From: a candidate division WOR-3 bacterium
GTDB lineage: Bacteria > Hydrothermota > 32-111
Assembly: GCA_039804105.1 (NCBI GenBank)
Contig: JBDRZU010000001.1
Location: 1,152,001 to 1,216,000 of the forward strand
Length of the DNA stretch: 64,000 nt
Direction: 5' to 3'
The translations under genes were made by a program, and so were the position numbers. The notes under the pieces are model-generated. The model was not told the DNA's origin and made no database searches. It saw only the letters and a program-made list of their open reading frames with translations. Shown piece after piece: positions 22,495 to 38,980 of this stretch. Position 1 is the stretch's first letter; the number at the start of each line of letters is the position of its first letter.

Positions 22495-22509
22495 AATAGG
22501 GGGTTTATT

Positions 22510-22896: not shown

Positions 22897-22898
22897 GT

Positions 22899-23441
22899 AT
22901 GACAAAAAAGAGTTTAAAAGGAACAAAAACTGAAAAAAACCTGTGGGAAGCATTTGCTGGTGAATCAATGGCAAGAAACAAATACACATACTTTGCATCT
23001 GTTGCAAAAAAAGAGGGATATGAACAGATAGCAGCGATATTTCAAGAAACAGCAGATAATGAAAAAGAACATGCAAAACTCCATTTTAAAGCACTTTCAG
23101 GTATAGGAAATACAATAGAAAACCTAAAAGCAGCAGCAGAAGGTGAAAATTATGAGACAACAACAATGTATCCTGAAATGGCAAAAATCGCAAGAGAAGA
23201 GGGATTTGACGAGATAGCAGATATGTTTGAAAAGATTGGTTCAGTAGAAAAAGATCATGAAAAAAGATATAGAAAACTCCTTGAAAATATTGAAAAACAG
23301 GTTGTGTTCAAAAGAGCAAAAAAGGTCTACTGGAAATGCAGAAACTGTGGACATATCCACGAAGCATCAGAAGCACCTGATATCTGCCCCGTCTGCAAAC
23401 ATCCAAAAGCATATTTCGAACTTTTTGTTGAGAATTATTAA
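22899..23441 (+). CDS. rbr: Rubrerythrin
   Basis: AFAGESMARNKY, EKEHA, GENYE..MYP, WKCRNCG..CPVC.HP. Confidence 0.95.
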   Translation: MTKKSLKGTKTEKNLWEAFAGESMARNKYTYFASVAKKEGYEQIAAIFQETADNEKEHAKLHFKALSGIGNTIENLKAAAEGENYETTTMYPEMAKIAREEGFDEIADMFEKIGSVEKDHEKRYRKLLENIEKQVVFKRAKKVYWKCRNCGHIHEASEAPDICPVCKHPKAYFELFVENY

Positions 23442-23488
23442 AATTTATAAAATTACAAATTAAACTTAGTTTGATTTTCACATATTAC

Positions 23489-23514
23489 ACCCTGCCGTTA
23501 ACTGGCAGGGTTTT
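23489..23514 (+). terminator. Intrinsic terminator of the oxidative-stress operon
   Basis: ACCCTGCC-gttaact-GGCAGGGT followed by TTT. Confidence 0.8.
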
Positions 23515-23526
23515 ATATATTTACGG

Positions 23527-23559
23527 AAAAAATGTCAAAAAGTCAAGCACCGTCCCCGA
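23527..23559 (+). repeat. Dispersed 32-33 bp element, copy R1
   Basis: AAAAAATGTCAAAAAGTCAAGCACCGTCCCCGA; exact reverse complement at 31542-31574 and direct copy at 38949-38980. Confidence 0.95.
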
Positions 23560-23565
23560 GTATTC

Positions 23566-26500
23566 TTATTTTCCATGTGTCAAATCTTCAGCAATTAGTT
23601 CTGCTTGTTTTAGTACCGTTTCTGTAGCTAACATTTGCATATCCGGCGGGTAACCATACTGACGCAATATTCGTTTAACAATGACCTTTAATTTTGCTTT
23701 TACACTTTCCTTTATTGTCCAATCAATCGATGCGTTTTCGCGTACTTTATTGTATAGAACTACAGCTAATTCTCTCAGTTTTTCTTTTCCCATTAACTCA
23801 CGGGCACTTTCATTGTTTGCAACTGCGGTATAAAAAGCATATTCATAATCGGAAAGCCCCAACTCTTCTGGTTCTTTATCCATTGCTTTAATTTCTTTGC
23901 TGAGTTTGATTAACTCCTCAATAACTTCTGCAGCTGTTAATATTTTGTTATGGTATTTTTTTATTGAACTTTCAAGCATCTCCATCAAGGTTTTTCCCTG
24001 TACAAGATTTTTCTTTAACCTTGCTTTTATTTCATCGCTAAGAAGTTTTTTTAGAACCTCCATTGCAAGGTTTTTGTGTTGCATGTTTTTAACTTCCAGA
24101 AGAAAATCTTCCGAAAGAATTGAAATCTCTGGCTTTTTAATGCCAGCTGCATCAAATACATCAATTACCTTATCCGTTACCAGAGATTTATCGATTACCT
24201 GTTTGATCGCAGTTTCGATTTCCTCATCGGTTTTGCCAGAGCCGGTCTTGTCGAATTTGGCAAGCCGTGCCTTAACCGCCTGAAAGAAGGCAATTTCATC
24301 TTTAACCGCCATAGCTTGCTCATGCGGAATGGCAATGGAGAATGCTTTTGACAGGGCTGTTACCTCGTCGATGTAACGTTTTTTACCATCTTCGAGCCCG
24401 AGAATATGTTCTTCGGCTTCAAGAATAATTGAGAGTTTCCTGCTTGTGTCTGCTTTAAAATACTCTTCATAAGCAAAACCGTGAAACATTTGTCTTACCA
24501 CTTCCAGTTTTTCTTGCATCAGCGCTACGGCTTGTTCCTGAGCCACAGCGGGATCTCCCTTGCCGCCAGAACTTGAGTAGAACGAAAGAGCTTTTTTAAG
24601 GTCCGCTGCAATACCCAAGTAATCGACAATTAGCCCACCGGTTTTATCTTTATACACCCGGTTGACTCGTGCGATAGCCTGCATGAGATTATGTCCCTGC
24701 ATAGGCTTGTCAATGTACATAGTATGCAGACAAGGAACATCAAATCCAGTAAGCCACATATCGCAAACAATGACCAATTTTAGTTCATCGTCAGGGTTTT
24801 TCATGCGGTCAGCAAGGATACGTCTCTCTTCTTTGGTGGTATGATGTTTGGCAATTTCAGGTCCATCGGATGAGGCCGAAGTCATCACTACCTTGATAAC
24901 GCCTTTTTTCAGATCGTTGCTATGCCACTTAGGACGTATTTTGATGATTTCATCGTAAAGGGCAGCAGCAATCCATCGTGACATTGTTACAATCATGCCT
25001 TTACCTTCAAAAACTTCTTGCCGCTGTTCAAAATGAGCTACAATATCCTGAGCCAGATGTTTTAATCGGTCGGCACTACCAACAAGTGCTTCGAGTTGTG
25101 TCCATTTGGCTTTTGCTTTTTGGGTTTCCGAAAGATCTTCCTGTTTTAATTCTTCATCGAGTTCTCTTACCAGTTTTTTCCCTTCTTCGCTTAAGCTGAT
25201 TTTTGCCAGACGGCTTTCGTAATAAATCCTCACTGTTGCACCATCTTCCACTGCCTGGGCAATATCGTAGATGTCTATGTAATTTCCGAAAACAGCCGGG
25301 GTATTTTTGTCATCTTTCTCAATTGGAGTCCCGGTAAAACCCAGATATGTAGCATTGGGTAGAGCATCGCGCATATATTTGGCAAAACCATAGACTGTTT
25401 TTTTGCCAACAACATTACCGTTTTCATCTTTTGCATCTACGATCTTTGCCTTGAATCCATATTGGGTACGGTGAGCCTCATCAGCGATAACCACAATATT
25501 TTTTCTTTCAGAAAGGGTTTCATAGACATTGCCCTCGTCGGGCATGAACTTATGTATAGTGGTAAAAACAATACCGCCAGAAGCTACTTTAAGCAACTCT
25601 TTAAGATGCTCGCGGCTTTCAGCTTGCACAGGTTCCTGTCGCAAAAGCTGGCGACATGCAGCAAAGGTATCGAAAAGCTGGTCGTCGAGGTCGTTTCGGT
25701 CGGTGATAACCACGATGGTGGGGTTGTCCATAACAAGCACAATCTTACCTGTAAAGAACACCATAGAGAGCGATTTGCCCGACCCTTGCGTATGCCATAC
25801 CACACCACCTTTTCGGTCGCCAATAGGTTGTGTAGCTGTTGCCGGTAAGCCATAACTCTCGGGCGATTCCATAACCATATTATCTCCGCCATGATTAGCT
25901 ACCAGAGATTTTCGGGGCAATGTGATTATAGAAGAGCTCGGGCGAATATACCCAGCCGCCCGTAGCGTTGATTCAACGGCACGATTCACCGCGTAGTACT
26001 GGTGATATGCTGCCATTTTCTTGACAGTTTCGTATGTAATCTGGCCGGTTTGTTTATCTTCTTTTTTCGATTTTTCGAATACGATGAAATGGCGTATCAT
26101 GTCAAGCAGCGTATATTTTTGAAGCATTCCTTTAATGAGCGTTTCGAGTTGGCATATAAGCGCTGATGCCTCAACCTTGCCATCAGCGGTTTTCCAGGCA
26201 GAAAAACGGCTGATATTTGCCGATATGGTACCGGCTTTTGCCTCAAGACCATCGGATATTACCACAAAACCATTGTAGGTGAACAGTCGTGGTATAGTTT
26301 CCTTGTAGGTCTGTATCTGCCTGAATGCTGAATGGATGGTGGCGTTTTCGTCAGCAGGATTTTTAAGCTCTAAGACAACCAGAGGAAGACCATTTACAAA
26401 TAAAACAAGGTCAGGACGTTTGTTTATATTGTTTTCAATAACGGTAAACTGATTTACTACCAGAAATTCGTTGTTCTCAATATTGTTGAAATCCACCAGC

Positions 26501-26841
26501 CATACCAGATCGCCACGGCTGTGGCCATTTTTTTTATAGTTTACCGTGATTCCTTCAGTAAGCATGCGATGGAAGTTTTCGTTGTTGACAATTAGCTCTG
26601 GAGAATTGAGGCGGAGAATCTGTTTGATGGCATCCTCGCGAGCATCGGCTGGTATACTGGGATTTATACGATCTACAGCCTGTTGCAAACGATCTATCAA
26701 AATCACATCTTCAAATGATTGGCGTTCTGGTTTAATGCCATCGGGGGCAATGTCAGGGCCATAGACATATTTGAAACCCTGTTTTTGCAGTAGTTCTATG
26801 GCTAATTTTTCGATATCCGATTCTGTAATGTTAATAGGCAT
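23566..26841 (-). CDS. hsdR: Type I restriction endonuclease subunit R
   Basis: RPDLVLFVNGLPLVVLELK nuclease motif, WHTQGSGKS, DEAHR, FTGTP, MWLTGFD, QAIARVNR. Confidence 0.96.
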   Translation of the reverse strand: MPINITESDIEKLAIELLQKQGFKYVYGPDIAPDGIKPERQSFEDVILIDRLQQAVDRINPSIPADAREDAIKQILRLNSPELIVNNENFHRMLTEGITVNYKKNGHSRGDLVWLVDFNNIENNEFLVVNQFTVIENNINKRPDLVLFVNGLPLVVLELKNPADENATIHSAFRQIQTYKETIPRLFTYNGFVVISDGLEAKAGTISANISRFSAWKTADGKVEASALICQLETLIKGMLQKYTLLDMIRHFIVFEKSKKEDKQTGQITYETVKKMAAYHQYYAVNRAVESTLRAAGYIRPSSSIITLPRKSLVANHGGDNMVMESPESYGLPATATQPIGDRKGGVVWHTQGSGKSLSMVFFTGKIVLVMDNPTIVVITDRNDLDDQLFDTFAACRQLLRQEPVQAESREHLKELLKVASGGIVFTTIHKFMPDEGNVYETLSERKNIVVIADEAHRTQYGFKAKIVDAKDENGNVVGKKTVYGFAKYMRDALPNATYLGFTGTPIEKDDKNTPAVFGNYIDIYDIAQAVEDGATVRIYYESRLAKISLSEEGKKLVRELDEELKQEDLSETQKAKAKWTQLEALVGSADRLKHLAQDIVAHFEQRQEVFEGKGMIVTMSRWIAAALYDEIIKIRPKWHSNDLKKGVIKVVMTSASSDGPEIAKHHTTKEERRILADRMKNPDDELKLVIVCDMWLTGFDVPCLHTMYIDKPMQGHNLMQAIARVNRVYKDKTGGLIVDYLGIAADLKKALSFYSSSGGKGDPAVAQEQAVALMQEKLEVVRQMFHGFAYEEYFKADTSRKLSIILEAEEHILGLEDGKKRYIDEVTALSKAFSIAIPHEQAMAVKDEIAFFQAVKARLAKFDKTGSGKTDEEIETAIKQVIDKSLVTDKVIDVFDAAGIKKPEISILSEDFLLEVKNMQHKNLAMEVLKKLLSDEIKARLKKNLVQGKTLMEMLESSIKKYHNKILTAAEVIEELIKLSKEIKAMDKEPEELGLSDYEYAFYTAVANNESARELMGKEKLRELAVVLYNKVRENASIDWTIKESVKAKLKVIVKRILRQYGYPPDMQMLATETVLKQAELIAEDLTHGK

Positions 26842-27403
26842 AATAATCGTCTTTTCTCCAGTTTTGGGGATTATTTTTTATGTATTCTGAAATTTGGATG
26901 TATGATTCATCATTACGGATGATGTGTTCATAATAATTGCGTTGCCATGCAAACGCAGGGTTTATGAAACGGGCACGTTTGGTAACGGCCGATTTAAAAC
27001 CACGAACAATGGATGCCAAATTTTTCGATTGCGGACCGAATTTGTTTTGATTTGTAGAGACGCAATGCATTGCGTCTCTACGATAACGGTCGTCATCACG
27101 GTTATCGATACGTTGCGTATTATATTGATTTTCGCCAATAATAATGGCGTGAAAATGATTGGGCATAATTACAAATTCGCCCATCGTTAAATTCATATCA
27201 CGACGCATTTCAAATGTTTTCAACCATTCCTGTCGGACAATTTCCCCAATTTCCGACAATACCATTTGTCCATCCAATATTTCGCCAAAAAAATTTTGCC
27301 GGTCGTGGGTACAAATGGTAACAAAATATGCCCCATTCCAGCCATAATCCCAATGTGGCAATCGCGTCGATGGTATGCGGTATGTATTTTTGTATTTATT
27401 CAT
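26831..27403 (-). CDS. REP-associated tyrosine transposase-like HUH endonuclease (Y1_Tnp/RAYT)
   Basis: RLPHWDY..GAYFVTICT, MPNHFHAII (HUH), SIVRGFKS, WQRNYYEHIIR, YIKNNP (catalytic Y); probable ATG at 27403. Confidence 0.88.
   Translation of the reverse strand: MNKYKNTYRIPSTRLPHWDYGWNGAYFVTICTHDRQNFFGEILDGQMVLSEIGEIVRQEWLKTFEMRRDMNLTMGEFVIMPNHFHAIIIGENQYNTQRIDNRDDDRYRRDAMHCVSTNQNKFGPQSKNLASIVRGFKSAVTKRARFINPAFAWQRNYYEHIIRNDESYIQISEYIKNNPQNWRKDDYYAY
27054..27081. repeat. Perfect 28-bp GTAG-tagged palindrome (REP-like) within the RAYT gene
   Basis: GTAGAGACGCAATGCATTGCGTCTCTAC equals its own reverse complement. Confidence 0.92.
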
Positions 27404-28535
27404 ATTGTATCCGTATTTCACCTGAAATCAATTTTGGCAACAAAAGATCGCGGAGTTTTTCCAGCGTGTGGATTTGATATCTATTTAATTCAATTTTTGA
27501 AAATAGTGATTCTGCTATTTGTTCAAACTTATTCAATAAATCCAAGGGTGGTACAAGAATTTTATAATCATAAAAAACTCCTTTTTGGAAAAATTCTCTA
27601 GCGCTTCCAGATGCACTATGTAATAATTCACTAATTATTTGACGCAATGCATAATTCAAATAATGTTGAGAAAAATCTTCTTTTGCTCGAAACCGCCACA
27701 TATTTTGATTTTGTAATGCAGGTAAAATATCTTGAGTGACAATCGCAAAATTCCCTAAGCTTGCCCCTACCATTACTAATAGGAAGTCATTACGTTTTAA
27801 ATAAAATTGACTATATTCAGTTGCTAATTCTTCGGAGATATACACTAAATCATTTAATTCAATCCAATGATTTGAAAAGTTTAAGGTTCTGATAATTTTT
27901 TGTCCATATTCTTTATAACTAGAACTTTGAAAAGCATATCCATTAAAAATTACACAAATATCCTTTAGTGGTTTTTCCTCCCACCCCTTTGGCAAACCGT
28001 TTTTGCAGGGTTCGATGAACCATTGGCGGAAGAGAGTTTCTGCCATGGCTTCGAGGGTTTTGTTTTGGCGGTGGAGCAGGTCTATTTTATCGTCAAGGCT
28101 GGAGAGAACCGAGGCTATGGCTCGCTGCTCAGGGAGAGGGGGGAGGAGGAGGTCTTGATTATATGCAGCGTTACGATTTAATCCAGGTACAGCACTATCA
28201 CTATTTAAATCCTCAAGACCTAATGTTTGCAAACAATAATATAAATAATCAAAGTCGTATTCTTCATCATTTGGAAGAATATAATATGCTGTATCAATAC
28301 AAAAAAAAGGTTTTTCACTTTTATAGATTTTTCCTATCGTACCTTTTCTACCCACAATAATACCTTTAGAATTTACTAAAGGTTCGTTATGCCATCCGCT
28401 CAAGCCTGATGAACTGTAAACAGGAACATCACCATTAACGCGAACTTCTTCTTTAAGTCCTTTACCATAGTTTAGTACAACAACATCCCCCAGTTTACAT
28501 TCCCTCCACCCCTTCGAATTATTACCTTCATTCAT
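27396..28535 (-). CDS. hsdS: Type I restriction-modification specificity subunit S
   Basis: Two TRDs separated by PPLPEQRAIASVLSSLDDKIDL..TLEAMAETLFRQWF; C-terminal LRDLLLPKLISGEI; start 28535 (alternative 28553). Confidence 0.93.
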   Translation of the reverse strand: MNEGNNSKGWRECKLGDVVVLNYGKGLKEEVRVNGDVPVYSSSGLSGWHNEPLVNSKGIIVGRKGTIGKIYKSEKPFFCIDTAYYILPNDEEYDFDYLYYCLQTLGLEDLNSDSAVPGLNRNAAYNQDLLLPPLPEQRAIASVLSSLDDKIDLLHRQNKTLEAMAETLFRQWFIEPCKNGLPKGWEEKPLKDICVIFNGYAFQSSSYKEYGQKIIRTLNFSNHWIELNDLVYISEELATEYSQFYLKRNDFLLVMVGASLGNFAIVTQDILPALQNQNMWRFRAKEDFSQHYLNYALRQIISELLHSASGSAREFFQKGVFYDYKILVPPLDLLNKFEQIAESLFSKIELNRYQIHTLEKLRDLLLPKLISGEIRIQYE

Positions 28536-28545
28536 AATAAATTCC

Positions 28546-29682
28546 TTAATCATTAAACAATTTCATATATTCATGAAAAACAAAAACTCTATTGCGTTTG
28601 TAACCTGTAATTTCGTGCAATATGTTTTGTTTAGTAAAAATTCGAATCAATTCGTTGGCTGCTTTAGGCGAAAGGCCTGTTACGGATTGGGTTTCGGCTA
28701 CCGTGATGACCGGTTTCCTGAACAGTTGATGAAAAAGATCGAGTGCCTGTTTTGATCGCCTGCCCATTGGCAGGATATGTTCTTTTTCAATTCGGGATTT
28801 AAGTTTTATAATATTTTGCAATGTATTGACCGAATTTTCTGCAGTGTTTGCAATTCCCACAAGAAAATACTTAATCCATTGTAGTAAATCGTTTTTAGTC
28901 CTCACAAAAGTCAGGTTATCATAGTAAAGCGATTTGTTTTTTTCGAAATATTCCGAAAGGTATAACAAAGGTTTGTCCAGAACTCCGTTGGCTACAAGAT
29001 ACAGGGTAATCAAGAGCCGTCCTATCCTTCCATTACCATCCAAAAAAGGGTGAATGGTTTCAAATTGATAATGGGCAATGGCTATTTTTATCAGGTGTGG
29101 AATCTTAATATCAGAATTATTCAGAAAAAATTCAAAGTCTGAAAGCAACTCAGGAAGCTCCGTATGAGCCGGAGGAATAAAAACGGCATCGGCAAGGGTA
29201 GCTCCGCCAATCCAGTTTTGCGTTGTGCGAAATTCACCGGGATTTTTGTGTTCACCTCGCACACTAGAAAGTAAAATACGATGGGTGTTTTTAATAAGCC
29301 TATTCGATAAAGGAAGCTTTTTCAGCTCTTCGATAGCATAATTGAGGGCTTTAACATAGTTGTTAACCTCTTGCCAGTCATCTCGCTTTTCCGGATCAAT
29401 ATCTCTTTCATCAATAAGTGCTTCCTCAATATTTGTTCGTGTTCCCTCTATTCGGCTTGATACGACGGCTTCTTTAAGTACATGCATAATAATGAACATG
29501 TCAACGTCGGGTATCAATCTGGAAAAGGAGTTTAATTCTCCCAGACGCAAACTGGCACGTTCCAAGAGTTCATTGATAGATGAATCGGTCCAATAGAACG
29601 GATGATTTATCTTTTCGGGTAAAAAATACTCGTACTGCAGCCCCTTTTTATAGCTTCCTGATATAAAATTTTTTATGTCCAT
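28546..29682 (-). CDS. Fic-family protein (N-terminal inhibitory helix, C-terminal HTH-like region)
   Basis: HPFLDGNGRIGR catalytic motif; SSRIEG inhibitory motif; probable ATG at 29682. Confidence 0.92.
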   Translation of the reverse strand: MDIKNFISGSYKKGLQYEYFLPEKINHPFYWTDSSINELLERASLRLGELNSFSRLIPDVDMFIIMHVLKEAVVSSRIEGTRTNIEEALIDERDIDPEKRDDWQEVNNYVKALNYAIEELKKLPLSNRLIKNTHRILLSSVRGEHKNPGEFRTTQNWIGGATLADAVFIPPAHTELPELLSDFEFFLNNSDIKIPHLIKIAIAHYQFETIHPFLDGNGRIGRLLITLYLVANGVLDKPLLYLSEYFEKNKSLYYDNLTFVRTKNDLLQWIKYFLVGIANTAENSVNTLQNIIKLKSRIEKEHILPMGRRSKQALDLFHQLFRKPVITVAETQSVTGLSPKAANELIRIFTKQNILHEITGYKRNRVFVFHEYMKLFND

Positions 29683-29692
29683 ATATCGTTCC

Positions 29693-29764
29693 AAAGTAAA
29701 TTATAAAAATACATATTTTACTTTATTGTATGAAAGTAAAATATAGAAATTTTAATTTTAGTTT
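29693..29764. promoter_or_regulatory. Nested inverted repeats upstream of fic (candidate operator)
   Basis: ATATTTTACTTT-8nt-AAAGTAAAATAT (29713-29744), with outer AAAGTAAA and TTTTAGTTT half-sites. Confidence 0.5.
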
Positions 29765-31308
29765 CATATTAATTTCACCTTTTTTAAATTCTCCAGTATC
29801 GCCTTATTCAGTCGCTCTTCTTCTTTTAACTGTTCTTCAAACTCTTTTTTAAGTTGTGTAAATCGCTCATTAAAATCGAAGTCGTCTTCTTCGTCGGGAA
29901 GACCTACGTATCGCCCGGGAGTAAGCACATAGTCGAGTTCCCGCACACGTTCAATGTTTGCCGAACAGCAAAAACCTTTGATGTCCTCGTATTTTCTGTT
30001 GGGATTTCGCCATTCGTGGTAGGTACGGGCTATTTTCTGAATATCCTCGGTGGTGAGTACACGGTTTCGCCGATTGATTAGTTGTCCCATATTGCGGGCA
30101 TCGATAAAAAGAATTTCATCAATGCGGTTGCGGTATTTTCCGTTTGCCTTGTTTCTGCTCAGAAACCACAGGCAAGCCGGGATCTGAGTATTCAAAAAGA
30201 GCTTAGCTGGTAGGTTTACAATACAATCCACAAGCCGTGCCTCGATAATTTCTTTTCGTATTTCACCTTCGCCGCCAGTTTTTGATGTAAGAGAACCCTT
30301 AGCCAGCACAAAACCAGCCATTCCGCCGGGGCTTAAATGGTATAAGAAGTGTTGTATCCAAGCGTAGTTGGCATTACTTGCCGGTGGAACACCATATTTC
30401 CAGCGGGCATCGTTGCGTAAAAGTTCGCCTCCCCAGTCGCTGTCGTTGAACGGCGGATTGGCTATCACAAAATCAGCTTTGAGGTCCTTGTGGGCATCGT
30501 TAAGAAACGAGCCTTCACTGTTCCACTTTACCTGCGAGCTGTCGATACCACGGATGGCAAGGTTCATTTTGCACAGTCGCCAGGTGGTTTGGTTGCTTTC
30601 CTGTCCGTAAATGGATATGTCGTTGATTTTTCCCTGATGGCTCTCTACAAACTTTTCGGATTGCACGAACATACCGCCAGAGCCGCAGCAGGGGTCGAAC
30701 ACCCGTCCTTTATATGGCTCAAGCATTTCAACCAGCAGTTCTACCACACATCTTGGGGTATAGAATTGTCCACCTTTTTTACCTTCTGCCAATGCAAACT
30801 CGCCCAGAAAATACTCGAACACATGACCTAAAATGTCGGCACTACGTGCTTTTGCCTCACCAAGCGCGATATTGGAAATAAGGTCAATGAGGCCTCCTAA
30901 ACTCGTTGGGTCAATGTTACCACGGGCATATACTTTTGGAAGCACATCTTTGAGCGATGGATTTTCCTTCTCGATGGCATCCATCGCTTCGTCAATCTCT
31001 TTACCAATGGTAGGCAGCTTTGCCCTCGATTGCAAGTACGACCAGCGGGCTTTTTCGGGTACATAGAACACATTTTCTGCCTTGTATTCATCTTTATCTT
31101 CAGGATCTGCTCCGGCATATTCGCCTTTGCCGCTCTTTAGTTTTGCGTGAAGTTCTTCAAATGCATCGGAGATGTATTTCAGGAAAATTAATCCCAGAAC
31201 AACATGCTTGTATTCCGCTGCGTCAATGTTTTTGCGAAGCTTATCTGCAGCTTTCCAGAGTTGTTTTTCTAATGGTTCGTTGGTGTTATTCTTTTTTTTC
31301 TTTACCAT
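29764..31308 (-). CDS. hsdM: Type I restriction-modification m6A methyltransferase subunit M
   Basis: [30 protein letters not shown]. Confidence 0.96.
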
Positions 31309-31541
31309 ACTTTCTCCTTTTTAACTATTCATTTCTTTCATACCGCACGAAAAGACACTCTTGGAGCAAAAAATATTTTTCGCAAAATTTTCTTTTCACA
31401 ATACATTGACGCTCTGCATTTCGCACAATTTTCAATATCTGTAATTTCCTATAATTAACCTATTTTAATTATATAAATAACAAAAAAATTTTAAACAAAA
31501 AACTCATTATCTATCACTATTTTCAATGTTTTTCAACTCTT

Positions 31542-31574
31542 TCGGGGACGGTGCTTGACTTTTTGACATTTTTT
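31542..31574 (-). repeat. Dispersed 32-33 bp element, copy R2 (inverted)
   Basis: TCGGGGACGGTGCTTGACTTTTTGACATTTTTT is the reverse complement of 23527-23559. Confidence 0.95.
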
Positions 31575-31706
31575 TGTAAACCTTTATTCTTATTATAGTT
31601 ACATTATCTTCAAAAATCTTTTTTCTAATAGATTTTTTATTTGCCATACAATTATAAAATTTAAGATTTAAAATCATAGTTTAACATATAAAACAATCTA
31701 AAATTT

Positions 31707-32510
31707 TTACTCCATCAACAATGTATCTTCCAGAAAGTTTGTACTTTTTATTGTATATTTGCCTCTTTTTAGATTCAAAAAATTCACCGTTCCCGTTTCA
31801 TCAGAAATGTTTTCTCTCACAATATTTCCATCAACATCAAGCAGTAAAAATTTTTCGTTTTTTATTTCAGTATTCAATTTTAAAGAAAACTTTTCTTGCA
31901 ATGTTTCAGTAAAAAAATAATTCTCCCATCTTTTTCTGTTGATATTACCTGAAAAATCAACAACACTATCAACAATAACTTGAACTAAAAATTTTTCATT
32001 CAAAAAAATAGAAATTTTATCATCATCAATCTTTTCAGTATATTTAACATTTTCGGGATAAACTTTAAAAAATATTTTTTCGATATTCTCTGAAAAATAG
32101 AGTGTTATAACACTATCCAGGGAAGAACTTCTTGTAATTTCAGGAGGAATGTTATCTTTTATTTTTTGACCTTTTACCTTTAGATTCAAAAAGTCCTTTT
32201 TGTTATTGTTCAAATCTGTTAGAGAAAAGATGTAAACTCCCGAAATTTTTCTGTTAAAATCGTAATCAACAAGAATCGAATTTTTGTTTAAATAAAATTT
32301 TTGTTTTAAAATTGTATCTTCATATTTTATCTGAATTGAATCAACTTTTGAAACCTCTTCTGAAAGATCTATTCTGATTTTACCACCTTCAAAAAAGTAG
32401 ATGTTTTTAACCTCAGGTTTAATTCTATCAGGTGAAGGTGGTGGAAGCTTTTTTCCACATGAAACGAAAACAAAAAAAATTGTGAAAAAAAGAAAAAAAA
32501 TTTTTTTCAC
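31707..32510 (-). CDS. Lipoprotein with Ig-like repeats
   Basis: Lipobox FVSC then GKKLPPPSPD; D..PP.I..LYFSE motifs resembling Big_5 domains. Confidence 0.65.
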   Translation of the reverse strand: MKKIFFLFFTIFFVFVSCGKKLPPPSPDRIKPEVKNIYFFEGGKIRIDLSEEVSKVDSIQIKYEDTILKQKFYLNKNSILVDYDFNRKISGVYIFSLTDLNNNKKDFLNLKVKGQKIKDNIPPEITRSSSLDSVITLYFSENIEKIFFKVYPENVKYTEKIDDDKISIFLNEKFLVQVIVDSVVDFSGNINRKRWENYFFTETLQEKFSLKLNTEIKNEKFLLLDVDGNIVRENISDETGTVNFLNLKRGKYTIKSTNFLEDTLLME

Positions 32511-32516
32511 TTAAAA

Positions 32517-32888
32517 TTATTCTGTTTTTCCCTTTGCGTTTTTATCAAAAAGTTCCTGTTTTGACATTGAACAGGTTCCATCAAATATCACACCTTCTTC
32601 AACTATAAGATATTTACAAACAAGATCTATTTTGACCCTTGCTGTTTTCTGAAGTTCAACTCGATTTTTAACGATTAGTTTTCCTTCAACTATACCACCT
32701 ATAACAGCATCCTTTGTGTTTATCGTTCCATTCAAATTACCTGTTTTTCCAACTGTCAACATCTCAGAAACTGTTATCTCTCCATCAATATGTCCATCAA
32801 CCCTGACAGAGCCCGGAACAAAAACTTTTCCTGAAATGTGTGTTCCCTCTCCTATAATGTTGTTTATTCCTGCACTGTTTTTCTCCAT
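32517..32888 (-). CDS. Bactofilin (polymer-forming cytoskeletal protein)
   Basis: IIGEGTHISG..VRVDGHIDGEI..LIVEEGVIFDGTCSM. Confidence 0.92.
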   Translation of the reverse strand: MEKNSAGINNIIGEGTHISGKVFVPGSVRVDGHIDGEITVSEMLTVGKTGNLNGTINTKDAVIGGIVEGKLIVKNRVELQKTARVKIDLVCKYLIVEEGVIFDGTCSMSKQELFDKNAKGKTE

Positions 32889-32902
32889 AAAAACTCCTTT
32901 AT

Positions 32903-33661
32903 TTAGTTATTTAGATTTACAAATTGAATCGGATCATAGTAAACAGAATCCATCAAGATCTCATAATGCAGATGTGGTGCTGAAGATTTTCCAGTGTTTC
33001 CAACGGTTCCAACGATTTCACCTTTTTTTATCGTTTGTCCTTTTTTTACAAGTACCTTCTGAAGGTGTCCATAAAAGATTGAAAATTTATTGTTTTTTAT
33101 CTGAACAAAATTTCCAAAAACATCATCCCATCCTGTTCTTTCAACTGTTCCATTTATCGTTGAAACAACCATCGTTCCAAGATTGCATGCGATATCTATC
33201 GCAGGGTGATCCTTTGTAAAACTCCTTGAAACAACTCCTTCAACAGGATTTATATCAGGTTTCAACTCATCATATTCTCTCAATGAATCAACATTCACTA
33301 TTGTACTTTCAACTTTTGCTACAGAAATTTCTTTTGTGTGTGATTTTAAAATTTTGTTTTGAATATCTATACCTAAAAGTTCTCTGATCTTTTCATTCTT
33401 TTCATATAACTCTTTTATGTCAGATTTTAACTCCTCTACTTTTTTCATTTCATTTTCCATATATCTCATCTTCTTCTCAAAATTCCTTTTCTGCATAGCA
33501 TCATAGTATACTGTTGAAATAAAAGCAAATCCTGCAATTATACAAATTACAATGAATATCAAGACACCGGTTAAAATCTTGAACAGAGTTGTTGAAATCA
33601 AAAATTCTTTTTTGTCTTTTCCATCAGGACTTATGTAGATTAAGGTTATCTTTCTTTTCAA
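32903..33661 (-). CDS. Membrane-anchored M23 peptidoglycan endopeptidase
   Basis: TM plus coiled coil, HPAID, YGHL, GNTGKSSAPHLHYEI. Confidence 0.92.
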   Translation of the reverse strand: MKRKITLIYISPDGKDKKEFLISTTLFKILTGVLIFIVICIIAGFAFISTVYYDAMQKRNFEKKMRYMENEMKKVEELKSDIKELYEKNEKIRELLGIDIQNKILKSHTKEISVAKVESTIVNVDSLREYDELKPDINPVEGVVSRSFTKDHPAIDIACNLGTMVVSTINGTVERTGWDDVFGNFVQIKNNKFSIFYGHLQKVLVKKGQTIKKGEIVGTVGNTGKSSAPHLHYEILMDSVYYDPIQFVNLNN

Positions 33662-33664
33662 TTT

Positions 33665-34672
33665 CTAAAAGCCCCTTTTTGATAAATCTGTTTTCAAAAT
33701 CTCTCTTATAAGTTTTACACTGTTTTCAACATCATCCATATCACACATTTCCGCTTGAGAGTGAATATATCTTGTTGGCACAGAGACAATTCCTGTTAAT
33801 ACACCCTCTTTGTTCGTCTGGATCATCATTCCATCTGTTGTTCCACCTTTCAAAATTTCAAGTTGATATGGAATCTTATTTTTCTTTGCAACATCAACCA
33901 TAAAATCGATAACAAGTTTTCTAACAACCATTCCACTATCAAGAACTTTTATCGCAGGGCCCTCTCCAAGTTTAACATCCATAATGTATGATTCAGGGGT
34001 ATCACCTGTGCCCGTGACATCAACTGCTATAGCAAAATCTGGTGAAACAGAGAACGCTGATGTTTTAGCACCTCTTAAACCAACCTCTTCCTGTGTTGTG
34101 AAAACATAATAAATATCGTTATCGGTTTCAAAATCATCGAGTGCAAGTTGGAGTAAAATTGCACATCCAATTCTATCATCGAGTGCCTTTGTTGAAACTC
34201 GTTTCCCAAGATCAACAAATGTTGGTTTCATTGCACCAAGAAGTCCAACCTGAACTTTCTTTTCTGCATCCTTTTTATCCTTTGCACCTATATCTATATA
34301 CATTTCATCGATCTTTGGAATATTCTGCCAGTTGAAGTTTTTGTTTTCATATCCGATAACACCTTCAACTCCGTTCACAAAAACAACATGGTTTTCAATT
34401 ATATTGTGAGGAAAAAGTCCACCAACAACAGCAAATCTCAAGAATCCATTTTTGTCTATATGTTTCACTATAAAACCGATTTCATCCATATGTGCAGCAA
34501 GCATTATTTTTTTACCTTTTCCTTTTTTTCTGACGATCAGGTTTCCTAAAGCATCCTTCTTTATCTCAAGATTCTTTTTTCCTTTTAAACTTTTTTCAAT
34601 GTAATCAACAACCGGTTCCTCATACGAGGATGGACCAATAATGCTTGTTAATTCTTTCACCAAATTTTTCAT
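33665..34672 (-). CDS. M42 (TET) metalloaminopeptidase
   Basis: AHMDEIG, KALDDRIG, QEEVGLRG, VDVT, YIHS. Confidence 0.93.
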   Translation of the reverse strand: MKNLVKELTSIIGPSSYEEPVVDYIEKSLKGKKNLEIKKDALGNLIVRKKGKGKKIMLAAHMDEIGFIVKHIDKNGFLRFAVVGGLFPHNIIENHVVFVNGVEGVIGYENKNFNWQNIPKIDEMYIDIGAKDKKDAEKKVQVGLLGAMKPTFVDLGKRVSTKALDDRIGCAILLQLALDDFETDNDIYYVFTTQEEVGLRGAKTSAFSVSPDFAIAVDVTGTGDTPESYIMDVKLGEGPAIKVLDSGMVVRKLVIDFMVDVAKKNKIPYQLEILKGGTTDGMMIQTNKEGVLTGIVSVPTRYIHSQAEMCDMDDVENSVKLIREILKTDLSKRGF

Positions 34673-34680
34673 TTTTACCC

Positions 34681-35685
34681 CTATTTTAATTTGTTTAAAA
34701 GTATTTTTGTTAAATCTATCATCGATTGATAATCCCTTAAATCAGCAAAAGAAACTGGAGAATGTATGTATCTTGAGGGAACAGCAAAAACTATCGTTCT
34801 CACTCCTTCTTTTGATCTGTGTATTTCTCCTCCGTCTGTCTTGCCGATCATTGGTTGTTTGAATTGATATTTGATCTTGTTCTCTTTTGCATACTCAACA
34901 CTCTTTTTTAAAAGATCTTTATCAACAAAAAGAGATCTATCAGAAATCGTTATAACAACACCATCTCCCATTTTTGGAAAATCAGGTTCATCCTTTGAGT
35001 GCGGCATATCAGCAGCGGATGTTCCTTCAAGCACTATCGCATAATCAGAAGGAATGTTGTATGCTGCAACTTTTGATCCTCTCAATCCAACCTCTTCTTG
35101 AACAAAGAAACATCCATAAAGATCGTTTTCATATCTATCTTTTAAAATTTCAATGAGTGCTCCACAGCCCAATCTATCATCAAAAGATTTTCCTTTGATA
35201 ATATTTCCTCTTTTTTCAAATTTTGTGTCAAAAACAGCATAATCACCAACAGAAACATATTTTTCTGCATCCTTTTTATCAAGCGCTCCAATATCAATAA
35301 AAAGAGAATCAACATCGGGTATGTTGTTGTAATCTTTCCTTTGAAGATGTATTGGTTTATAACAAATTATGCCTTTTATTTTGTCCTTTCCAATCAAAAA
35401 ATTTTTTCCTATCAAAACTCTTTTATCTATACTTCCAGCAGGTAAAAATCTTAACATTCCATTTTCCTCTATCGATTTTATCATAAAACCGACTTCATCC
35501 ATATGTGCACCGATCAGAATCTTTTTGCCATTATTATTTTTACCTTTTTTATAAGCAACGATGTTTCCCATCTTATCGATCTTCAAAGAATCAACATAAT
35601 CTTTTATAGTTTCAACTATAAAATCTCTAATCTCATTTTCGTTTCCAGAGGGTCCAAAACCTTCACTTAAATTTTTTAAAATCAT
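34681..35685 (-). CDS. M42 (TET) metalloaminopeptidase
   Basis: AHMDEVG, KSFDDRLG, QEEVGLRG, LEGT, YIHS. Confidence 0.92.
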   Translation of the reverse strand: MILKNLSEGFGPSGNENEIRDFIVETIKDYVDSLKIDKMGNIVAYKKGKNNNGKKILIGAHMDEVGFMIKSIEENGMLRFLPAGSIDKRVLIGKNFLIGKDKIKGIICYKPIHLQRKDYNNIPDVDSLFIDIGALDKKDAEKYVSVGDYAVFDTKFEKRGNIIKGKSFDDRLGCGALIEILKDRYENDLYGCFFVQEEVGLRGSKVAAYNIPSDYAIVLEGTSAADMPHSKDEPDFPKMGDGVVITISDRSLFVDKDLLKKSVEYAKENKIKYQFKQPMIGKTDGGEIHRSKEGVRTIVFAVPSRYIHSPVSFADLRDYQSMIDLTKILLNKLK

Positions 35686-35695
35686 AATATCTCCC

Positions 35696-36736
35696 TCATT
35701 TAATTATTTTTTCACCATACTTTTCAAAATCAACTTCAGAAACAAATATTGAAAGCAGTTTTGAAATTTTATCTATGGTTTTTAGGTTAACAATTTCCCT
35801 TGGAGAATGCATATTTTTAATAGGCAGAGAAAGCAGTATCGTTTTTATGCCACCTCTTGCTGTTTGAACCATATAAGCATCAGTTCCAGAATGTTGTGGA
35901 ACTGGTTCGATTTCATATTTAATATTTTCACGCTTTACAAGTTCTATAATATAATCACAAAGTTGAGAACATATATGAGCACCTCTGGCAATTCCTATCG
36001 CATCATAAGATGCTCCAGTTTCAACTCCTGGCTGCTTTGCAAAAGTCACATCAACAACAACAGCAATATCTGGCTGGATCGAATAAGCAGCAGTCAAGCT
36101 TCCAGCCATAGTTGTCTCTTCTTGGGCATTCAACACAAAATATAGGTCGGGAATATTTTTTAAATTTTTAATGTGGTTTAAAAGGTTAATAATTGCTGCA
36201 GCAGAACCCCTGTTATCTATAGATTTACAACAAACAAAATCATTCTTCAATTCTGTGAATTCACTTTTAATCAAAACTCTATCCCCAATCTTAAAATATT
36301 TTTTTAGTTCTGCATTTTTCATCGCAAGATCGACATATAAGTCATCATATTTCAACAACTTATCACTTTCACCACTTTTTTGAAGATGTGGTGGAGTTGC
36401 TCCGATAATACCAGATACAACTTTTTCTCCAAAAACTGTTACCTCCTGTCCCAACAAAACTTTCTCATCATATCCACCAACAGAGGTAAATCTTAAATAA
36501 TCTCCATCAATTTTTGTAACTATAAGACCTATTTCGTCGTTATGTGTAAAAAATCCAATTTTTCCAGTTCGATCACCTTTTCTGAAAATTATTATGTTTC
36601 CCATCTTATCAAGTGAAATTGAAAGATTTTTTTCATCTTCAAAAATCTTTTTCACATTTTCAAAACTTTTCTCTTCCATTCCAGAAGGTCCAAATGATTC
36701 TGTTAAAATTTTCAAAACTTCTTTTAAATCTTTCAT
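35696..36736 (-). CDS. M42 (TET) metalloaminopeptidase, divergent
   Basis: THNDEIG, KSIDNRG, QEET, VDVT, NMHS. Confidence 0.88.
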   Translation of the reverse strand: MKDLKEVLKILTESFGPSGMEEKSFENVKKIFEDEKNLSISLDKMGNIIIFRKGDRTGKIGFFTHNDEIGLIVTKIDGDYLRFTSVGGYDEKVLLGQEVTVFGEKVVSGIIGATPPHLQKSGESDKLLKYDDLYVDLAMKNAELKKYFKIGDRVLIKSEFTELKNDFVCCKSIDNRGSAAAIINLLNHIKNLKNIPDLYFVLNAQEETTMAGSLTAAYSIQPDIAVVVDVTFAKQPGVETGASYDAIGIARGAHICSQLCDYIIELVKRENIKYEIEPVPQHSGTDAYMVQTARGGIKTILLSLPIKNMHSPREIVNLKTIDKISKLLSIFVSEVDFEKYGEKIIK

Positions 36737-36744
36737 TATTTCTC

Positions 36745-37581
36745 CTAATCAAAATTTTTCAAACCCAATAAATTTAGAAGTTTTCTGAAATCCTCATCGT
36801 TGTAAAATTCTAAATTTATACTACCTTTGCCCTTTCTATATTTAACAATAACCTTTCTTGATAATTTTTCCGAAAGTTTATTTTCAAGATCCTTTAGATG
36901 AACAGATTTCTTCTTTTCATGTGTTTTTATATGTTTCTCTTCACCAGAAGATAAAAGTTTTTCAAGATCTCGAACCGAAAGATCCTCTCTATAAACTCTT
37001 TCAGCAAGATGTTTTCTTCTTAATGGTTCCTTTATTGACAACAAAACTTTTGCATGTCCAAAACTTATTTTGTTTTCTTTTAAAAGTTCCTTTATACTAT
37101 CCTCAAGTTCAAGAACTCTCAAAATATTTGTGATATGTGCTCTCGACTTACCAACTTTTTTTGAGATCTCTTCGTGTGTAAGGTTAAACTTTTCAGCAAG
37201 TTCCTTGTATGCCTCTGCTTCTTCAACGACATTCAAATCTTCTCTCTGAACATTTTCGATCAAAGCCCATTCAACCATTTTGTCATTTGATAATTCTTTT
37301 ACTATGGCGGGTATATCCTTCATCCCCAAAAGTTTACATGCTCTAAACCTTCTTTCTCCAGTAACTATTTCATAATGATCACCAACCCTTCTGACAGTGA
37401 TCGGTTGCAGAACTCCATTTTCCTTTATAGATTCTGCAAGTTCTTTTAATTCTTCATCTTTAAAAACTTTTCTTGGTTGAAACGGGTTTGGTTTAATATT
37501 TACTATCGGTATGTTTCGAACTTCCCTCTGTTCTGTTCCCGCAATTATCGATTCAAGACCTCGACCTAACGCTTTTTTCAT
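36745..37581 (-). CDS. parB: Chromosome partitioning CTPase ParB/Spo0J
   Basis: [40 protein letters not shown]. Confidence 0.96.
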
Positions 37582-38341
37582 CTTTCTCTATTATCTCCTT
37601 TGCAAGTTCAAGATATGCTTTTGAACCAGTTGAAACCGGATCAAATAGGATTATTGGTTTTCCAAAAGATGGTGCCTCTGCAAGTTTAACATTTCTTGGA
37701 ATATATGTTTTATATACAGCACTTTTAAAATAGTTCAAAACTTCATCCGCAACCTGACGAGCAAGAGTTAATCTATTGTCATACATCGTTATCAGAACCC
37801 CCTCGATTTCAAGAGCAGGGTTTAAAGATTGTCTGATGCTGTTTATGGTGTTAAGGAGTTTCGCAAGACCTTCAACAGCATAAAATTCCGCCTGAACCGG
37901 AATCAAAATAGATTTTGAGGCAACAAGAGCGTTTACAGTCAACATCTGTAAAGATGGAGGACAATCGATAAGAATATATTCATATCTGTTTTTTATCTTT
38001 TCAAGAACCTTCTTCAACATACTCTCTCTTTCCTCTATATCAACAAACTCAACATCTGTTGCTGCAAGAGATATATCTGAAGGAATGAGATCTAAAAACT
38101 CAAGATCCGTTTTTACTATTATATCTTCAACTGGAACTTTGTTTAAAAGCGAATCATAAATACTTTTTCCTAAAAAATTTTTATCATAATAACCTAAAGA
38201 CGATGTTGCGTTTGCCTGAGGATCTATATCAACAAGCAAAGTTTTTTTCTCAGCAACAGCAAGTGCTGCTCCTAAATTCACAGCAGTTGTCGTCTTTCCA
38301 ACACCACCTTTTTGATTCGCTATAGAAATAATCTTTGTCAT
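37553..38341 (-). CDS. parA: Chromosome partitioning ATPase ParA/Soj
   Basis: [37 protein letters not shown]. Confidence 0.96.
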
Positions 38342-38395
38342 AGTTTGAAACTATAACACAATTTTTAAATTTTTCAATAGGTTTTTACAACAAAA

Positions 38396-38411
38396 TGTTC
38401 CACGTGGAACA
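38396..38411. promoter_or_regulatory. parS: parS centromere site
   Basis: TGTTCCACGTGGAACA, a perfect match to the bacterial parS consensus, extended to a 24-bp palindrome (38392-38415), directly upstream of parA. Confidence 0.95.
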
Positions 38412-38414
38412 TTT

Positions 38415-38948
38415 TTAAAGTTTTATAAGAACTGGTTTATTTATTTTTTTCCAGTAAACGATATCGCCTTTAAAATTTTTATCTTTCATAAAAGTTTTAA
38501 GTTCTTCCTCTTTTAAAAACGCTCTTGATAAAACAAGATCAAAATCAGAAAAATTTATACTGTTAACATCGTCATTTTTTATCATAACATTTTTTAAACC
38601 AAGGGATTCTTTCACCTCTTTTAAAAAATAGCATTTTTTTTCTTTTATCTCAATAAGTGTAAAATTTTTTTCTTTAAAAACAATTGCAAGCGGTATTGCT
38701 GGAAATCCGTTTCCACTACCAATATCAACAATATTTTTATATTTGGGTTCACAAACAAAATTCAACGCTAAAAGAGAGTCCCTGAAATGTCTTTCAACGA
38801 TAATATCTATATCATTTTTTGAAATCAGGTTAACAGATTCGTTCCATTTCAACAGAAGGTCTAAATAAATGGCCATCTCTTGAAAATTTTTTTCAACTTT
38901 TAGTTCTCTTAAAAGTTTTTCTAACTGATTTAAAATAATAACTTGCAT
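38415..38948 (-). CDS. rsmG: 16S rRNA m7G527 methyltransferase (short form)
   Basis: LLKWNESVNLIS, RHFRDSL, DIGSGNGFPAIPLA, SRA. Confidence 0.9.
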   Translation of the reverse strand: MQVIILNQLEKLLRELKVEKNFQEMAIYLDLLLKWNESVNLISKNDIDIIVERHFRDSLLALNFVCEPKYKNIVDIGSGNGFPAIPLAIVFKEKNFTLIEIKEKKCYFLKEVKESLGLKNVMIKNDDVNSINFSDFDLVLSRAFLKEEELKTFMKDKNFKGDIVYWKKINKPVLIKL

Positions 38949-38980
38949 AAAAATGTCAAAAAGTCAAGCACCGTCCCCGA
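38949..38980 (+). repeat. Dispersed 32-33 bp element, copy R3
   Basis: AAAAATGTCAAAAAGTCAAGCACCGTCCCCGA, identical to 32 nt of R1; abuts the rsmG ATG and contains the TGA of the upstream gene. Confidence 0.95.

Follow-up and report, generated by a model that had tools for sequence, protein, structure and literature searches.

The present work deals with a repeated 32-bp site in a stretch of 64,000 nucleotides from the genome of a candidate division WOR-3 bacterium (genome G000; NCBI GenBank assembly GCA_039804105.1, contig JBDRZU010000001.1, here C1). This whole stretch, G000:C1:1152001-1216000, is referred to as the window, and the three copies of the site within it as R1, R2 and R3. Very probably all three are solo terminal inverted repeat (TIR) copies of a TIRtron, with R1 and R2 as GGGG-end junctions of a swappable module that comprises a type I restriction-modification (RM) system and a SoFic gene. 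The first-pass annotation of the window had proposed an undescribed system. However, genes that resemble those of REP-associated tyrosine transposases (RAYTs; REP, repetitive extragenic palindrome) and are flanked by long TIRs unrelated to REP hairpins were named TIRtrons, and their enzymes TIRYTs, in 2013 (Di Nocera, De Gregorio & Rocco 2013, PMC3733652). That the repeat is the TIR family of a TIRYT is secure, and we regard the element as a new member, in WOR-3, of this known kind rather than as an undescribed class.

The repeat family and its enzyme

The 32-mer, AAAAATGTCAAAAAGTCAAGCACCGTCCCCGA, occurs with 0 mismatches at three places, and a search of the window at <=3 mismatches returned no further copy:

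23528..23559, + strand: R1, solo 32-bp TIR, exact match; the GGGG/CCCC end (23559) faces the RM cargo
31542..31573, - strand: R2, solo TIR inverted relative to R1, exact match; the GGGG end (31542) faces the RM cargo
38949..38980, + strand: R3, solo TIR between the rsmG ATG and the end of a ThiI-like open reading frame (ORF), exact match; an old orthologous copy

The chance expectation for matches to the 32-mer is 0.00, and 0 of 100 shuffles contained any. The site is asymmetric and not palindromic, carries GTCAA twice at a period of 8 bp and is G/C-rich at one end. In these features, as in the positions, orientations and gene-junction placements of the three copies and in their occurrence far beyond chance, the first-pass annotation was accurate.

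Beyond the window, the genome (1.81 Mb, 30% G+C, two contigs, C1 and C2) contains 39 copies of a 26-mer core at <=3 mismatches (14 exact, 15 with one and 10 with two mismatches) against 0 for a reversed control. A 16-mer core yields 40 copies at <=1 mismatch, and a 23-mer is exact in 38 of the 39. The repeat unit is 32 bp long with sharp edges, the information content across 40 copies being at background outside -13..+18. With about 40 sites in existence, the earlier picture of three sites that partition the chromosome finds no support. By our ORF calls, for which a crude longest-ORF caller was used outside the window, the copies are intergenic except for 4 of 40 that lie inside a called ORF, and these ORFs are probably spurious; several copies run at their edges into the end of a neighbouring gene.

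The copies are unevenly distributed. Twelve lie in C1:1266-1291 kb (a run of four on the + strand, a run of seven on the - strand and one degenerate copy) and eight in C1:1054-1085 kb. Altogether 25 of the 40 fall into C1:1016-1291 kb, which is 15% of the genome around the GC-skew minimum (~1.19 Mb). An outward-facing TIR dimer is located at C1:1386958/1387228. There is no strand bias with respect to replication: the left arm of C1 has 9 copies on the + and 10 on the - strand, the right arm 7 and 10.

Two perfect inverted copies of the 32-mer (32/32), at C1:1070315 (-) and 1071284 (+), have their GGGG ends outward and delimit a unit of ~1 kb. It contains a Y1 HUH gene (G000:C1:1070311-1071225) that lies outside the window, 104 kb from R1, and whose 3' end reads into the TIR. 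This gene is the only one of the genome with a Y1_Tnp match (Pfam 3.5e-12), and it is single-copy in the four same-genus genomes that have it, its pieces lying on two contigs in genome G001. The earlier suggestion of a RAYT-related HUH Y1 enzyme was well founded. So was its remark that GGGGAC-type termini occur around such genes, as the outer end of the TIR is GGGGACGG and the published consensus GGGGWSAS.

The encoded protein (305 aa) has REP_Tyr_transpos ('REP-associated tyrosine transposase') as its best NCBIfam match (2.9e-16), and with 23.2 bits it stays below the cut-off of 55 for transpos_IS200. Across 51 aligned homologs, H59 and Y118 never vary, while H61 and N122 reach at least 90% conservation; the two histidines form the motif H59-F-H61. 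An AlphaFold model (pLDDT 89) superimposes with residues 2-180 on 4er8, the complex of E. coli RAYT and a REP hairpin (Foldseek E 4.7e-7; Z 15.8, root-mean-square deviation 2.6, 154 residues aligned). Residues 221-300 of the model resemble DnaA domain IV (1l8q, Z 8.1; 8btg, 7.9; 3pvp, 7.5; 1j1v, 7.4). A homolog of 65% identity bears the UniRef label 'DnaA domain protein', and the distant homolog P0121 has PF08299. Based on the model, the TIRYT is predicted to be a RAYT-like nuclease fused to a helix-turn-helix (HTH) domain that is similar to DnaA domain IV.

Repeat and enzyme occur together. TIRYT homologs are present in 29 of 40 related genomes (G000 included), and the 23-mer at <=2 mismatches in 12 of the 40, each of them among the 29. 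The 23-mer is absent from the 11 genomes that lack a homolog, and patterns reversed as a control matched nowhere. In the congener G004, both a TIRYT match and TIR copies are missing. This search across the genome and its relatives had been recommended in the first-pass annotation, and it ties the repeat to the enzyme.

The TIR itself is bipartite, with the conserved G-rich outer end GGGGACGG and, next to it, two direct repeats of 7-8 bp in tandem (here CTTGACTT / TTTGACAT). At 17 of 18 orthologous loci of other genomes the gene is flanked by TIRs of its own, 20-32 bp in length. A GGGACGG-type outer end is kept at 12 of these 17 loci, and at the related locus of G014 it reads GGGGTCAG, an exact fit to GGGGWSAS. 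Two tandem 7-8-bp direct repeats are found at 14 of the 17 (none in G007, G010 and G014), and their type differs by lineage (TTGACA-, TTGGAT-, TTGGAAT-, TGTAAAC- and TTGTAAA-). We infer a bipartite site whose conserved end would serve the catalytic domain and whose variable direct repeats would serve the HTH.

The exact 23-mer is also found in genomes and metagenome contigs of 36-51% G+C, including a metagenome-assembled genome labelled Wallbacteria (48-51%; L031, L032, L034, L038). It is carried as well by the loci L135-L148, among which L138 is a TIRtron-like unit with doubled TIRs. This distribution suggests that the TIR/TIRYT lineage has spread horizontally across phyla. Viral contigs contain eight exact matches to the 16-mer; five of these represent one conserved coding context and two lack the upstream part of the TIR. 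Only in L103, a viral contig of 28.8 kb and 39% G+C, is the 16-mer (GTCAAGCACCGTCCCC) accompanied by a second GTCAAGC 9 bp upstream, in a TIR-like tandem context. The eight matches are compatible with chance, and a phage origin of the repeat was consequently dismissed.

R1, R2 and R3 in their genomic context

R1 and R2 enclose five genes, all on the - strand, and R2 and R3 enclose a core block. The features are:

23443..31706, no strand: variable island of 8.3 kb (arms, R1, cargo and R2), absent from G002, G003 and G004
23566..26841, - strand: hsdR, type I restriction subunit, cargo; Pfam HSDR_N, SWI2_SNF2 and T1RH-like_C; PADLOC REase_I, E = 0
26831..27421, - strand: 196-aa ORF of no known family, cargo; no Pfam or PADLOC match at 1e-5
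27396..28553, - strand: hsdS, specificity subunit, cargo; Pfam Methylase_S; PADLOC Specificity_I, 2e-88
28546..29694, - strand: Fic-domain gene of the SoFic defence family, cargo; Pfam Fic_N and Fic; PADLOC SoFic, 3e-120
29764..31308, - strand: hsdM, type I methyltransferase, cargo; Pfam HsdM_N and N6_Mtase; PADLOC MTase_I, 1.5e-199
31707..38948, - strand: core block between R2 and R3 (SpaA-like, bactofilin, M23 peptidase, three M42 peptidases, parB, parA, rsmG), by Pfam; collinear in G002, G003 and G004

R1 is located 6 bp from the stop of hsdR, with convergent gene ends on both of its sides, and R2 occupies the gap that separates the start of hsdM (31308) from the end of the SpaA-like gene (267 aa, 31707-32510, -). 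R3 directly adjoins the ATG of rsmG (38415-38948, -), and the ThiI-like ORF (38964-39890, -) draws its last codons and its stop from R3.

The same-genus genomes G001 to G004 allow this region to be compared. The segment 23443-31706, with R1, the type I RM genes, SoFic, the 196-aa ORF and R2, is absent in 3 of 3 congeners (G002, G003 and G004). At their empty site the rubrerythrin and SpaA-like genes are split only by a shared terminator hairpin, and no repeat is found there. G001 is the closest relative (~86-93% identity in aligned pieces) and has R1 on contig C13 and R2 on contig C8. At both copies homology to G000 stops exactly after CCCCGA and other cargo follows; beyond R2 a ResIII-type ORF takes the place of the hsdM promoter of G000. 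A metagenome scan returned 15 stretches, none with the R1 or R2 arms beside other cargo.

R3 behaves differently. It is found at the same junction of the rsmG ATG and the ThiI stop in G001, where it is identical, and in G002 and G003, both with the variant TGTCACACTGTCAAGCACCGTCCCC of their own; G004 lacks it. In addition, the block between R2 and R3 forms one collinear alignment in G002, G003 and G004. By these comparisons R3 is an old copy, fixed between two core genes in four species, that marks no mobile block, and the core block itself is not mobile cargo.

Copies elsewhere as borders of exchanged DNA

We mapped 35 copies of G001 (34 plus one degenerate) onto G000, the G001 assembly being fragmented at the repeats. 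Of these, 17 are collinear, 9 are located at homology breaks and 9 belong to a reshuffled array. The DNA without homology starts from the GGGG side at 8 of the 9 breaks. The reshuffled array lies beside a TauE gene and is orthologous to G000 C1:1281710-1290787; its cassettes are permuted, truncated or replaced, and 5 of 6 homology blocks in it begin or end at a TIR.

Four cases were found in which cargo between two TIRs in one genome corresponds to a single TIR in another:

G000 261190/263699 against a single TIR in G001: cargo is a 722-aa LVIVD protein of the type IX secretion system (T9SS) kind
G002 C29 against a single TIR at G000 599284
G002 C13, and also a metagenome contig, against a single TIR at G000 709649
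G001 C18/C15 against G000 1067688, where G000 keeps a full TIR and a partial one

Furthermore, four inverted pairs with GGGG ends inward surround defence genes:

Window, R1-R2: type I RM and SoFic
G001, same locus as R1-R2 of the window: ResIII-type gene
G001 C1:43.8-50.3 kb: type III RM and DarT/DarG (DarTG); G000 has three T9SS proteins and no TIR there
G000 C1:1272-1281 kb: HKD-Snf2 helicase, type IIG RM and KwaA/KwaB (Kiwa)

The last of these is a compact defence island (G000:C1:1272246-1280518) in which the HKD(PLD)-Snf2 helicase is DrmD/BrxH-like and KwaA and KwaB are matched at 4e-46 and 7e-54. Among 23 proteins from TIR-bounded or TIR-adjacent units, 15 match PADLOC families at 1e-5. 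The inward-facing GGGG ends of the cargo pairs are not explained by a simple model of a transposon with cargo.

Renewal of copies and possible footprints

G002 (24 copies) and G003 (30) mostly carry a variant in which three bases between the GTCA cores are changed (CACT for AAAA), and their own TIRYT genes are flanked by this variant as well. At seven G000 positions G002 has this variant, three of them with homology on both flanks (R3, 279484 and 599284). Independent mutation cannot account for the same three substitutions at many orthologous sites, so the copies must have been overwritten or re-inserted in place. Five copies of G002 are of the G000 type or intermediate; the segments around them share 77.6-99.94% identity with G000 (>=84.5% in four of the five), compared with a typical identity of 73-81%. 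This suggests that the high-identity segments stem from transfer or from a binning artefact. The extreme case is L133 (G002:C25:52600-54200), which matches G000:C1:495396-496996 over 1601 bp at 99.94%, other aligned segments reaching 73-88%; it indicates either that DNA was recently transferred between the lineages or that this contig was wrongly binned into G002 (3% contamination).

Three independent tandem partial duplications were also found, at the following places:

G000 C1:1067665
G000 C1:1267603
G001 locus L114 (G001:C2:~430010)

All three start at the same internal base of the TIR (at the slash in GT/CAAGCACC); each covers the outermost 16-18 bp of the TIR and continues for 2-10 bp beyond the GGGG end. 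Judged by their sequence, they may be the footprint of staggered or abortive cleavage. One clean pair of filled and empty sites was found between two tRNA genes (G002 C13:55001 against G000 710406/710411). Here the insertion measures 43-46 bp and has CCCCAA at both edges, with no other duplication. A second pair is not clean, and the cases are too few for a target-site rule.

Further observations on the genome and the window

Both assembly contig ends of G000 lie in TIR-associated repeats (C1:1386958-1389684 and C2:419700-422116). Over the 60 bp compared, C1:1387228 and C2:421997 have the same flank on their A-rich side, and a protein whose internal repeat is highly regular (66-bp period) is encoded at C2:419.7-422 kb. 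The GC-skew maximum (~270 kb) adjoins another group of four TIR copies.

A second repeat family consists of GTAG-tagged hairpins of the type GTAGCCGCACCC-TTT-AGGGTGCG. Its eight copies, each <=133 bp from a TIR copy, are all located outside the window (G000:C1:470665-470770, 1267634 and 1289212-1289485), and their stems change compensatorily (GCACCC/GGGTGC, GCAACC/GGTTGC, GCAATC/GATTGC and GCAGGC/GCCTGC). The motif is also found beside TIRs in the G001 contigs C15 and C18. As these hairpins adjoin TIR copies, the genome contains classical REP-like elements side by side with TIRs, despite its single Y1 gene.

Within the window, the cumulative GC-skew minimum of C1 (~1.19 Mb, 10-kb bins) lies beside dnaN (42667-43776) and dnaA (43969-45312), and from these features the interval from R1 to R3 is probably next to the replication origin. 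The 196-aa ORF (26831-27421) overlaps hsdR and hsdS by a few codons each, which suggests that it is part of the RM operon. The rsmG ORF is short (177 aa) and spans positions 3-144 of the 184 positions of the GidB model. Like the ThiI-like ORF, the RAYT-like gene and one gene of G002 (locus L123) end inside a TIR. Between the M23 peptidase gene and parB, three tandem M42 glutamyl-aminopeptidase paralogs (335, 334 and 346 aa) occupy 33665-36736 (-).

Relation to known systems

In several aspects the element matches the published TIRtrons. As there, a RAYT-like Y1 HUH gene is enclosed by long non-hairpin inverted repeats, one of which overlaps the 3' end of the gene. Many, but not all, of the published TIRs share GGGGWSAS (PMC3733652); the outer end GGGGACGG comes close to this consensus, with 7 of 8 positions, but is no full fit. 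The same source describes 'moderately abundant families of TIRs' whose members stand alone, in dimers or in clusters (PMC3733652), and we found 39-40 dispersed copies with a dimer and same-strand arrays of 4 and 7. Concerning the protein, 20 of 26 TIRYTs were placed in the TnpA_REP subclass 2.1, all with Bac_DnaA_C/HTH_23/HTH_28-like C-termini, and 291 of the 292 sequences of Bertels' RAYT group 1 were assigned to this subclass (Quentin et al. 2018, PMC6006769). The predicted DnaA_C-like HTH at the C-terminus of our TIRYT agrees with this, the placement in subclass 2.1 and group 1 resting on such described features and not on a tree. On the other hand, the portions of the sources cited here do not name WOR-3 among the hosts of TIRtrons. 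Neither do they mention tandem direct repeats that co-vary with the enzyme, defence cargo, reshuffling of cassettes at the GGGG end or species-specific renewal of orthologous copies. The class is barely studied, and the terms TIRtron and TIRYT are rare in the literature searched. A link of RAYTs to defence islands or RM systems was not found in a search of titles and abstract openings.

Classical REPs (REPtrons) are imperfect palindromes of 20-40 bp with a GTAG (or CGTC) tag. With the REP/REPIN-RAYT systems (Nunvar 2010; Bertels & Rainey 2011, 2017) our element shares a single-copy Y1 HUH gene that is flanked by its own dispersed extragenic repeat, and a catalytic domain that is structurally closest to E. 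coli TnpA_REP (4er8, Z 15.8). It also shares the co-evolution of repeat and enzyme and the dominance of one 'master sequence', which for classical REPINs are established according to the source as cited (bioRxiv 10.1101/2021.07.10.451892). However, the repeat bears direct repeats instead of a palindrome, has neither GTAG tag nor hairpin, and mostly occurs in singles rather than in hairpin-forming doublets. The enzyme differs from RAYTs in being twice as long, in its extra HTH domain and in an NCBIfam score below the cut-off. A REP-like hairpin was rejected as the 32-mer does not fold: DNA-fold z values of the three copies on both strands against shuffles were 0.65, 0.87, 1.17, 1.44, -0.30 and -0.57. 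No Rfam match was found at the repeats, a search of 22500-40000 giving one sub-threshold chance match only.

IS200/IS605 elements are multi-copy insertion sequences with subterminal hairpins and a TnpA of ~130-150 aa. Their 'peel-and-paste' transposition uses the same Y1 HUH chemistry, and seamless excision and insertion of this kind, beside a short target and without target duplication, would explain the absent duplications and the re-occupied positions. In contrast to them, our element is a single-copy unit with inverted-repeat ends instead of distinct left and right ones, no subterminal hairpins, no tnpB and a protein of 305 aa. A Tn3-type 38-bp inverted repeat (GGGG...TAAG) was also considered and was dropped when the Y1 gene was found between inverted copies, no search for a Tn3 DDE gene having been made.

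Integrons combine an attC site, which folds from an imperfect palindrome, with an adjacent intI, and pdif is a 28-bp site in which two inverted recombinase-binding arms surround a 6-bp spacer. The same-orientation TIR arrays resemble integron arrays, in that short sites split accessory or defence modules of single operons that vary between relatives, and the inverted TIR pairs around one module resemble pdif (Xer) modules. However, the 32-mer has neither an attC-type fold nor dyad symmetry, and the enzyme associated with it is an HUH nuclease. There is no Phage_integrase-family gene in the window (a resolvase was not searched for) or near the arrays at C1:1266-1291 kb; the two matches of the genome, not typed for IntI, lie at C1:656 kb and C1:1328 kb. 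From the lack of dyad symmetry and the distance of these genes, a dif-like or integron-like recombinase system is unlikely.

Mechanism and alternative explanations

How might such a site come to border exchangeable DNA? In the mechanism that we propose, the C-terminal DnaA-domain-IV-like HTH would read the direct repeats on duplex DNA, and the HUH/Tyr domain would nick a single strand, at the GGGG end or close by, and rejoin it to another such end. Nicking and rejoining would disperse and renew solo copies, and the GGGG end would be the preferred junction for adding, exchanging or reordering blocks that mostly consist of defence genes. The assignment of domains to targets, the position of cleavage and the role of the TIRYT, instead of host recombination, as exchanger are what we infer here. 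One might go further and envision an HUH-driven cassette system, an analogue of integrons and pdif modules. In it, 'cargo + one TIR' would leave between two GGGG ends and re-insert at any GGGG end, which would reshuffle defence genes near the replication origin and overwrite old copies with the current TIR variant of the species. We put this forward tentatively and consider it rather unlikely.

Several results weigh against the interpretation of R1 and R2 as junctions of a module and against the proposed enzyme. No rearrangement is seen at 17 of the 35 G001 copies. Some of the enclosed cargo is not defence-related, e.g. GATase_4 or LVIVD/T9SS surface proteins, and the cargo pairs face inward with their GGGG ends, opposite to the TIRtron itself. 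In comparison with G002-G004, the indel reaches ~85 bp past R1 and ~135 bp past R2, and because of this extension R1 and R2 are not the edges of the insertion. The G001 contigs with R1 and R2 are only 699 and 750 bp long and may be assembly chimeras at the repeat. As for the protein, its NCBIfam REP_Tyr_transpos score (59.7 bits) does not reach the curated cut-off of 80. The HTH was assigned through Z scores of 7.4-8.1, which are moderate for a small helical domain, and no Pfam family was found at 1e-4 in the C-terminal part of the TIRYT protein (P0001). That copies coincide with synteny breaks and defence cargo, a check proposed in the first-pass annotation, is supported by the R1/R2 island, which is absent in 3 of 3 congeners and at whose repeats G001 homology ends after CCCCGA. 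Likewise, R1, R2 and many other copies behave as module boundaries, but R3 is a fixed core junction and the edges of the RM island are outside the repeats.

The most serious competitor of this interpretation is a passive role of the repeats. They would be derived from the TIRYT, but the enzyme would have no part in the turnover: islands would be swapped by homologous recombination between flanking core genes or between the 32-bp copies, and repeats would pile up where insertion is tolerated or hop locally. RecA recombination at such sites could equally yield every rearrangement that we observed, and between identical repeats it produces the same junctions as site-specific exchange. In favour of homologous recombination, the island edges lie outside R1 and R2 (and, at the G001 island, 65 and 117 bp outside the TIRs), and the G000-type copies of G002 are found in segments of unusually high identity, as expected from transfer and homologous recombination. 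The clustering of 25 of 40 copies near the TIRtron and in island-rich regions fits as well. However, 32 bp is short for efficient RecA recombination, the shared start base of the three partial duplications looks site-specific, and the species-specific 3-base variant at orthologous copies requires replacement of the copies and not just recombination around them. It is these position-specific duplications and the renewal of orthologous copies that argue for action of the enzyme. Taken together, we lean against passive repeats while taking them seriously, and either the transposase or ordinary homologous recombination may drive the exchange of modules.

Two other explanations carry less weight. 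A domesticated DNA-binding system would comprise an immobile TIRYT and 32-mers that serve as host protein-binding sites bracketing foreign DNA (boundary or silencing) or as portable -35-like (TTGACA) elements. It would suit the single-copy gene in four genomes, the predicted duplex-binding HTH, the TTGACT/TTGACA within the direct repeats, the inverted pairs that bracket defence operons and the conserved position of R3 in four species. A promoter or operator was also rejected as a candidate: the reverse strand has TTGACT/TTGACA, but there is no conserved -10 or spacing, R1 is located between convergent gene ends, and only 28 of the 40 copies share their orientation with the gene on the GGGG side. 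The same points tell against a domesticated system, together with the lack of a fixed gene distance and the low information outside the 32 bp (<=0.4 bit). Moreover, its catalytic HUH and Tyr residues are strictly conserved and the sets of copies differ between sister species, which makes domestication improbable. A local switch, as envisaged in the first-pass annotation, is more doubtful still. There, a site-specific recombinase would invert the RM cassette (R1xR2) or the parAB block (R2xR3) or excise 15.4 kb (R1xR3), and the exact identity and alternating orientation of the three copies, with R1 and R2 bounding a variable RM module, agree with this. Yet the copies belong to a family of ~40, and neither the R2xR3 inversion nor the R1xR3 excision is borne out, with R2-R3 collinear in G002, G003 and G004 and R3 fixed in four species (orthologous in G001, G002 and G003). 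In addition, the core sites of tyrosine and serine recombinases are unlike the 32-mer, whose sub-repeats are direct, not inverted, and which lacks dyad symmetry, and hundreds of kb separate the three copies from the only two integrase-family genes.

Implications

RAYT and TIRYT enzymes are widespread, and their effect for or on their hosts is a standing question. The lineage studied here can serve as a clean natural experiment: a single enzyme gene stands beside about 40 near-identical sites without hairpins, one sister species has a 3-base variant at orthologous positions, and one congener lacks both gene and sites. It raises the question of how a Y1 HUH enzyme recognises a non-palindromic duplex site, for which an HTH together with tandem direct repeats is a candidate answer, and the question of whether Y1 HUH enzymes drive the turnover of defence islands. 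The part most worth following up is the module-boundary behaviour of R1, R2 and many other copies. If the cassette interpretation were true, a third chemistry for exchangeable gene-cassette arrays would stand beside the tyrosine-recombinase integrons and the Xer modules.

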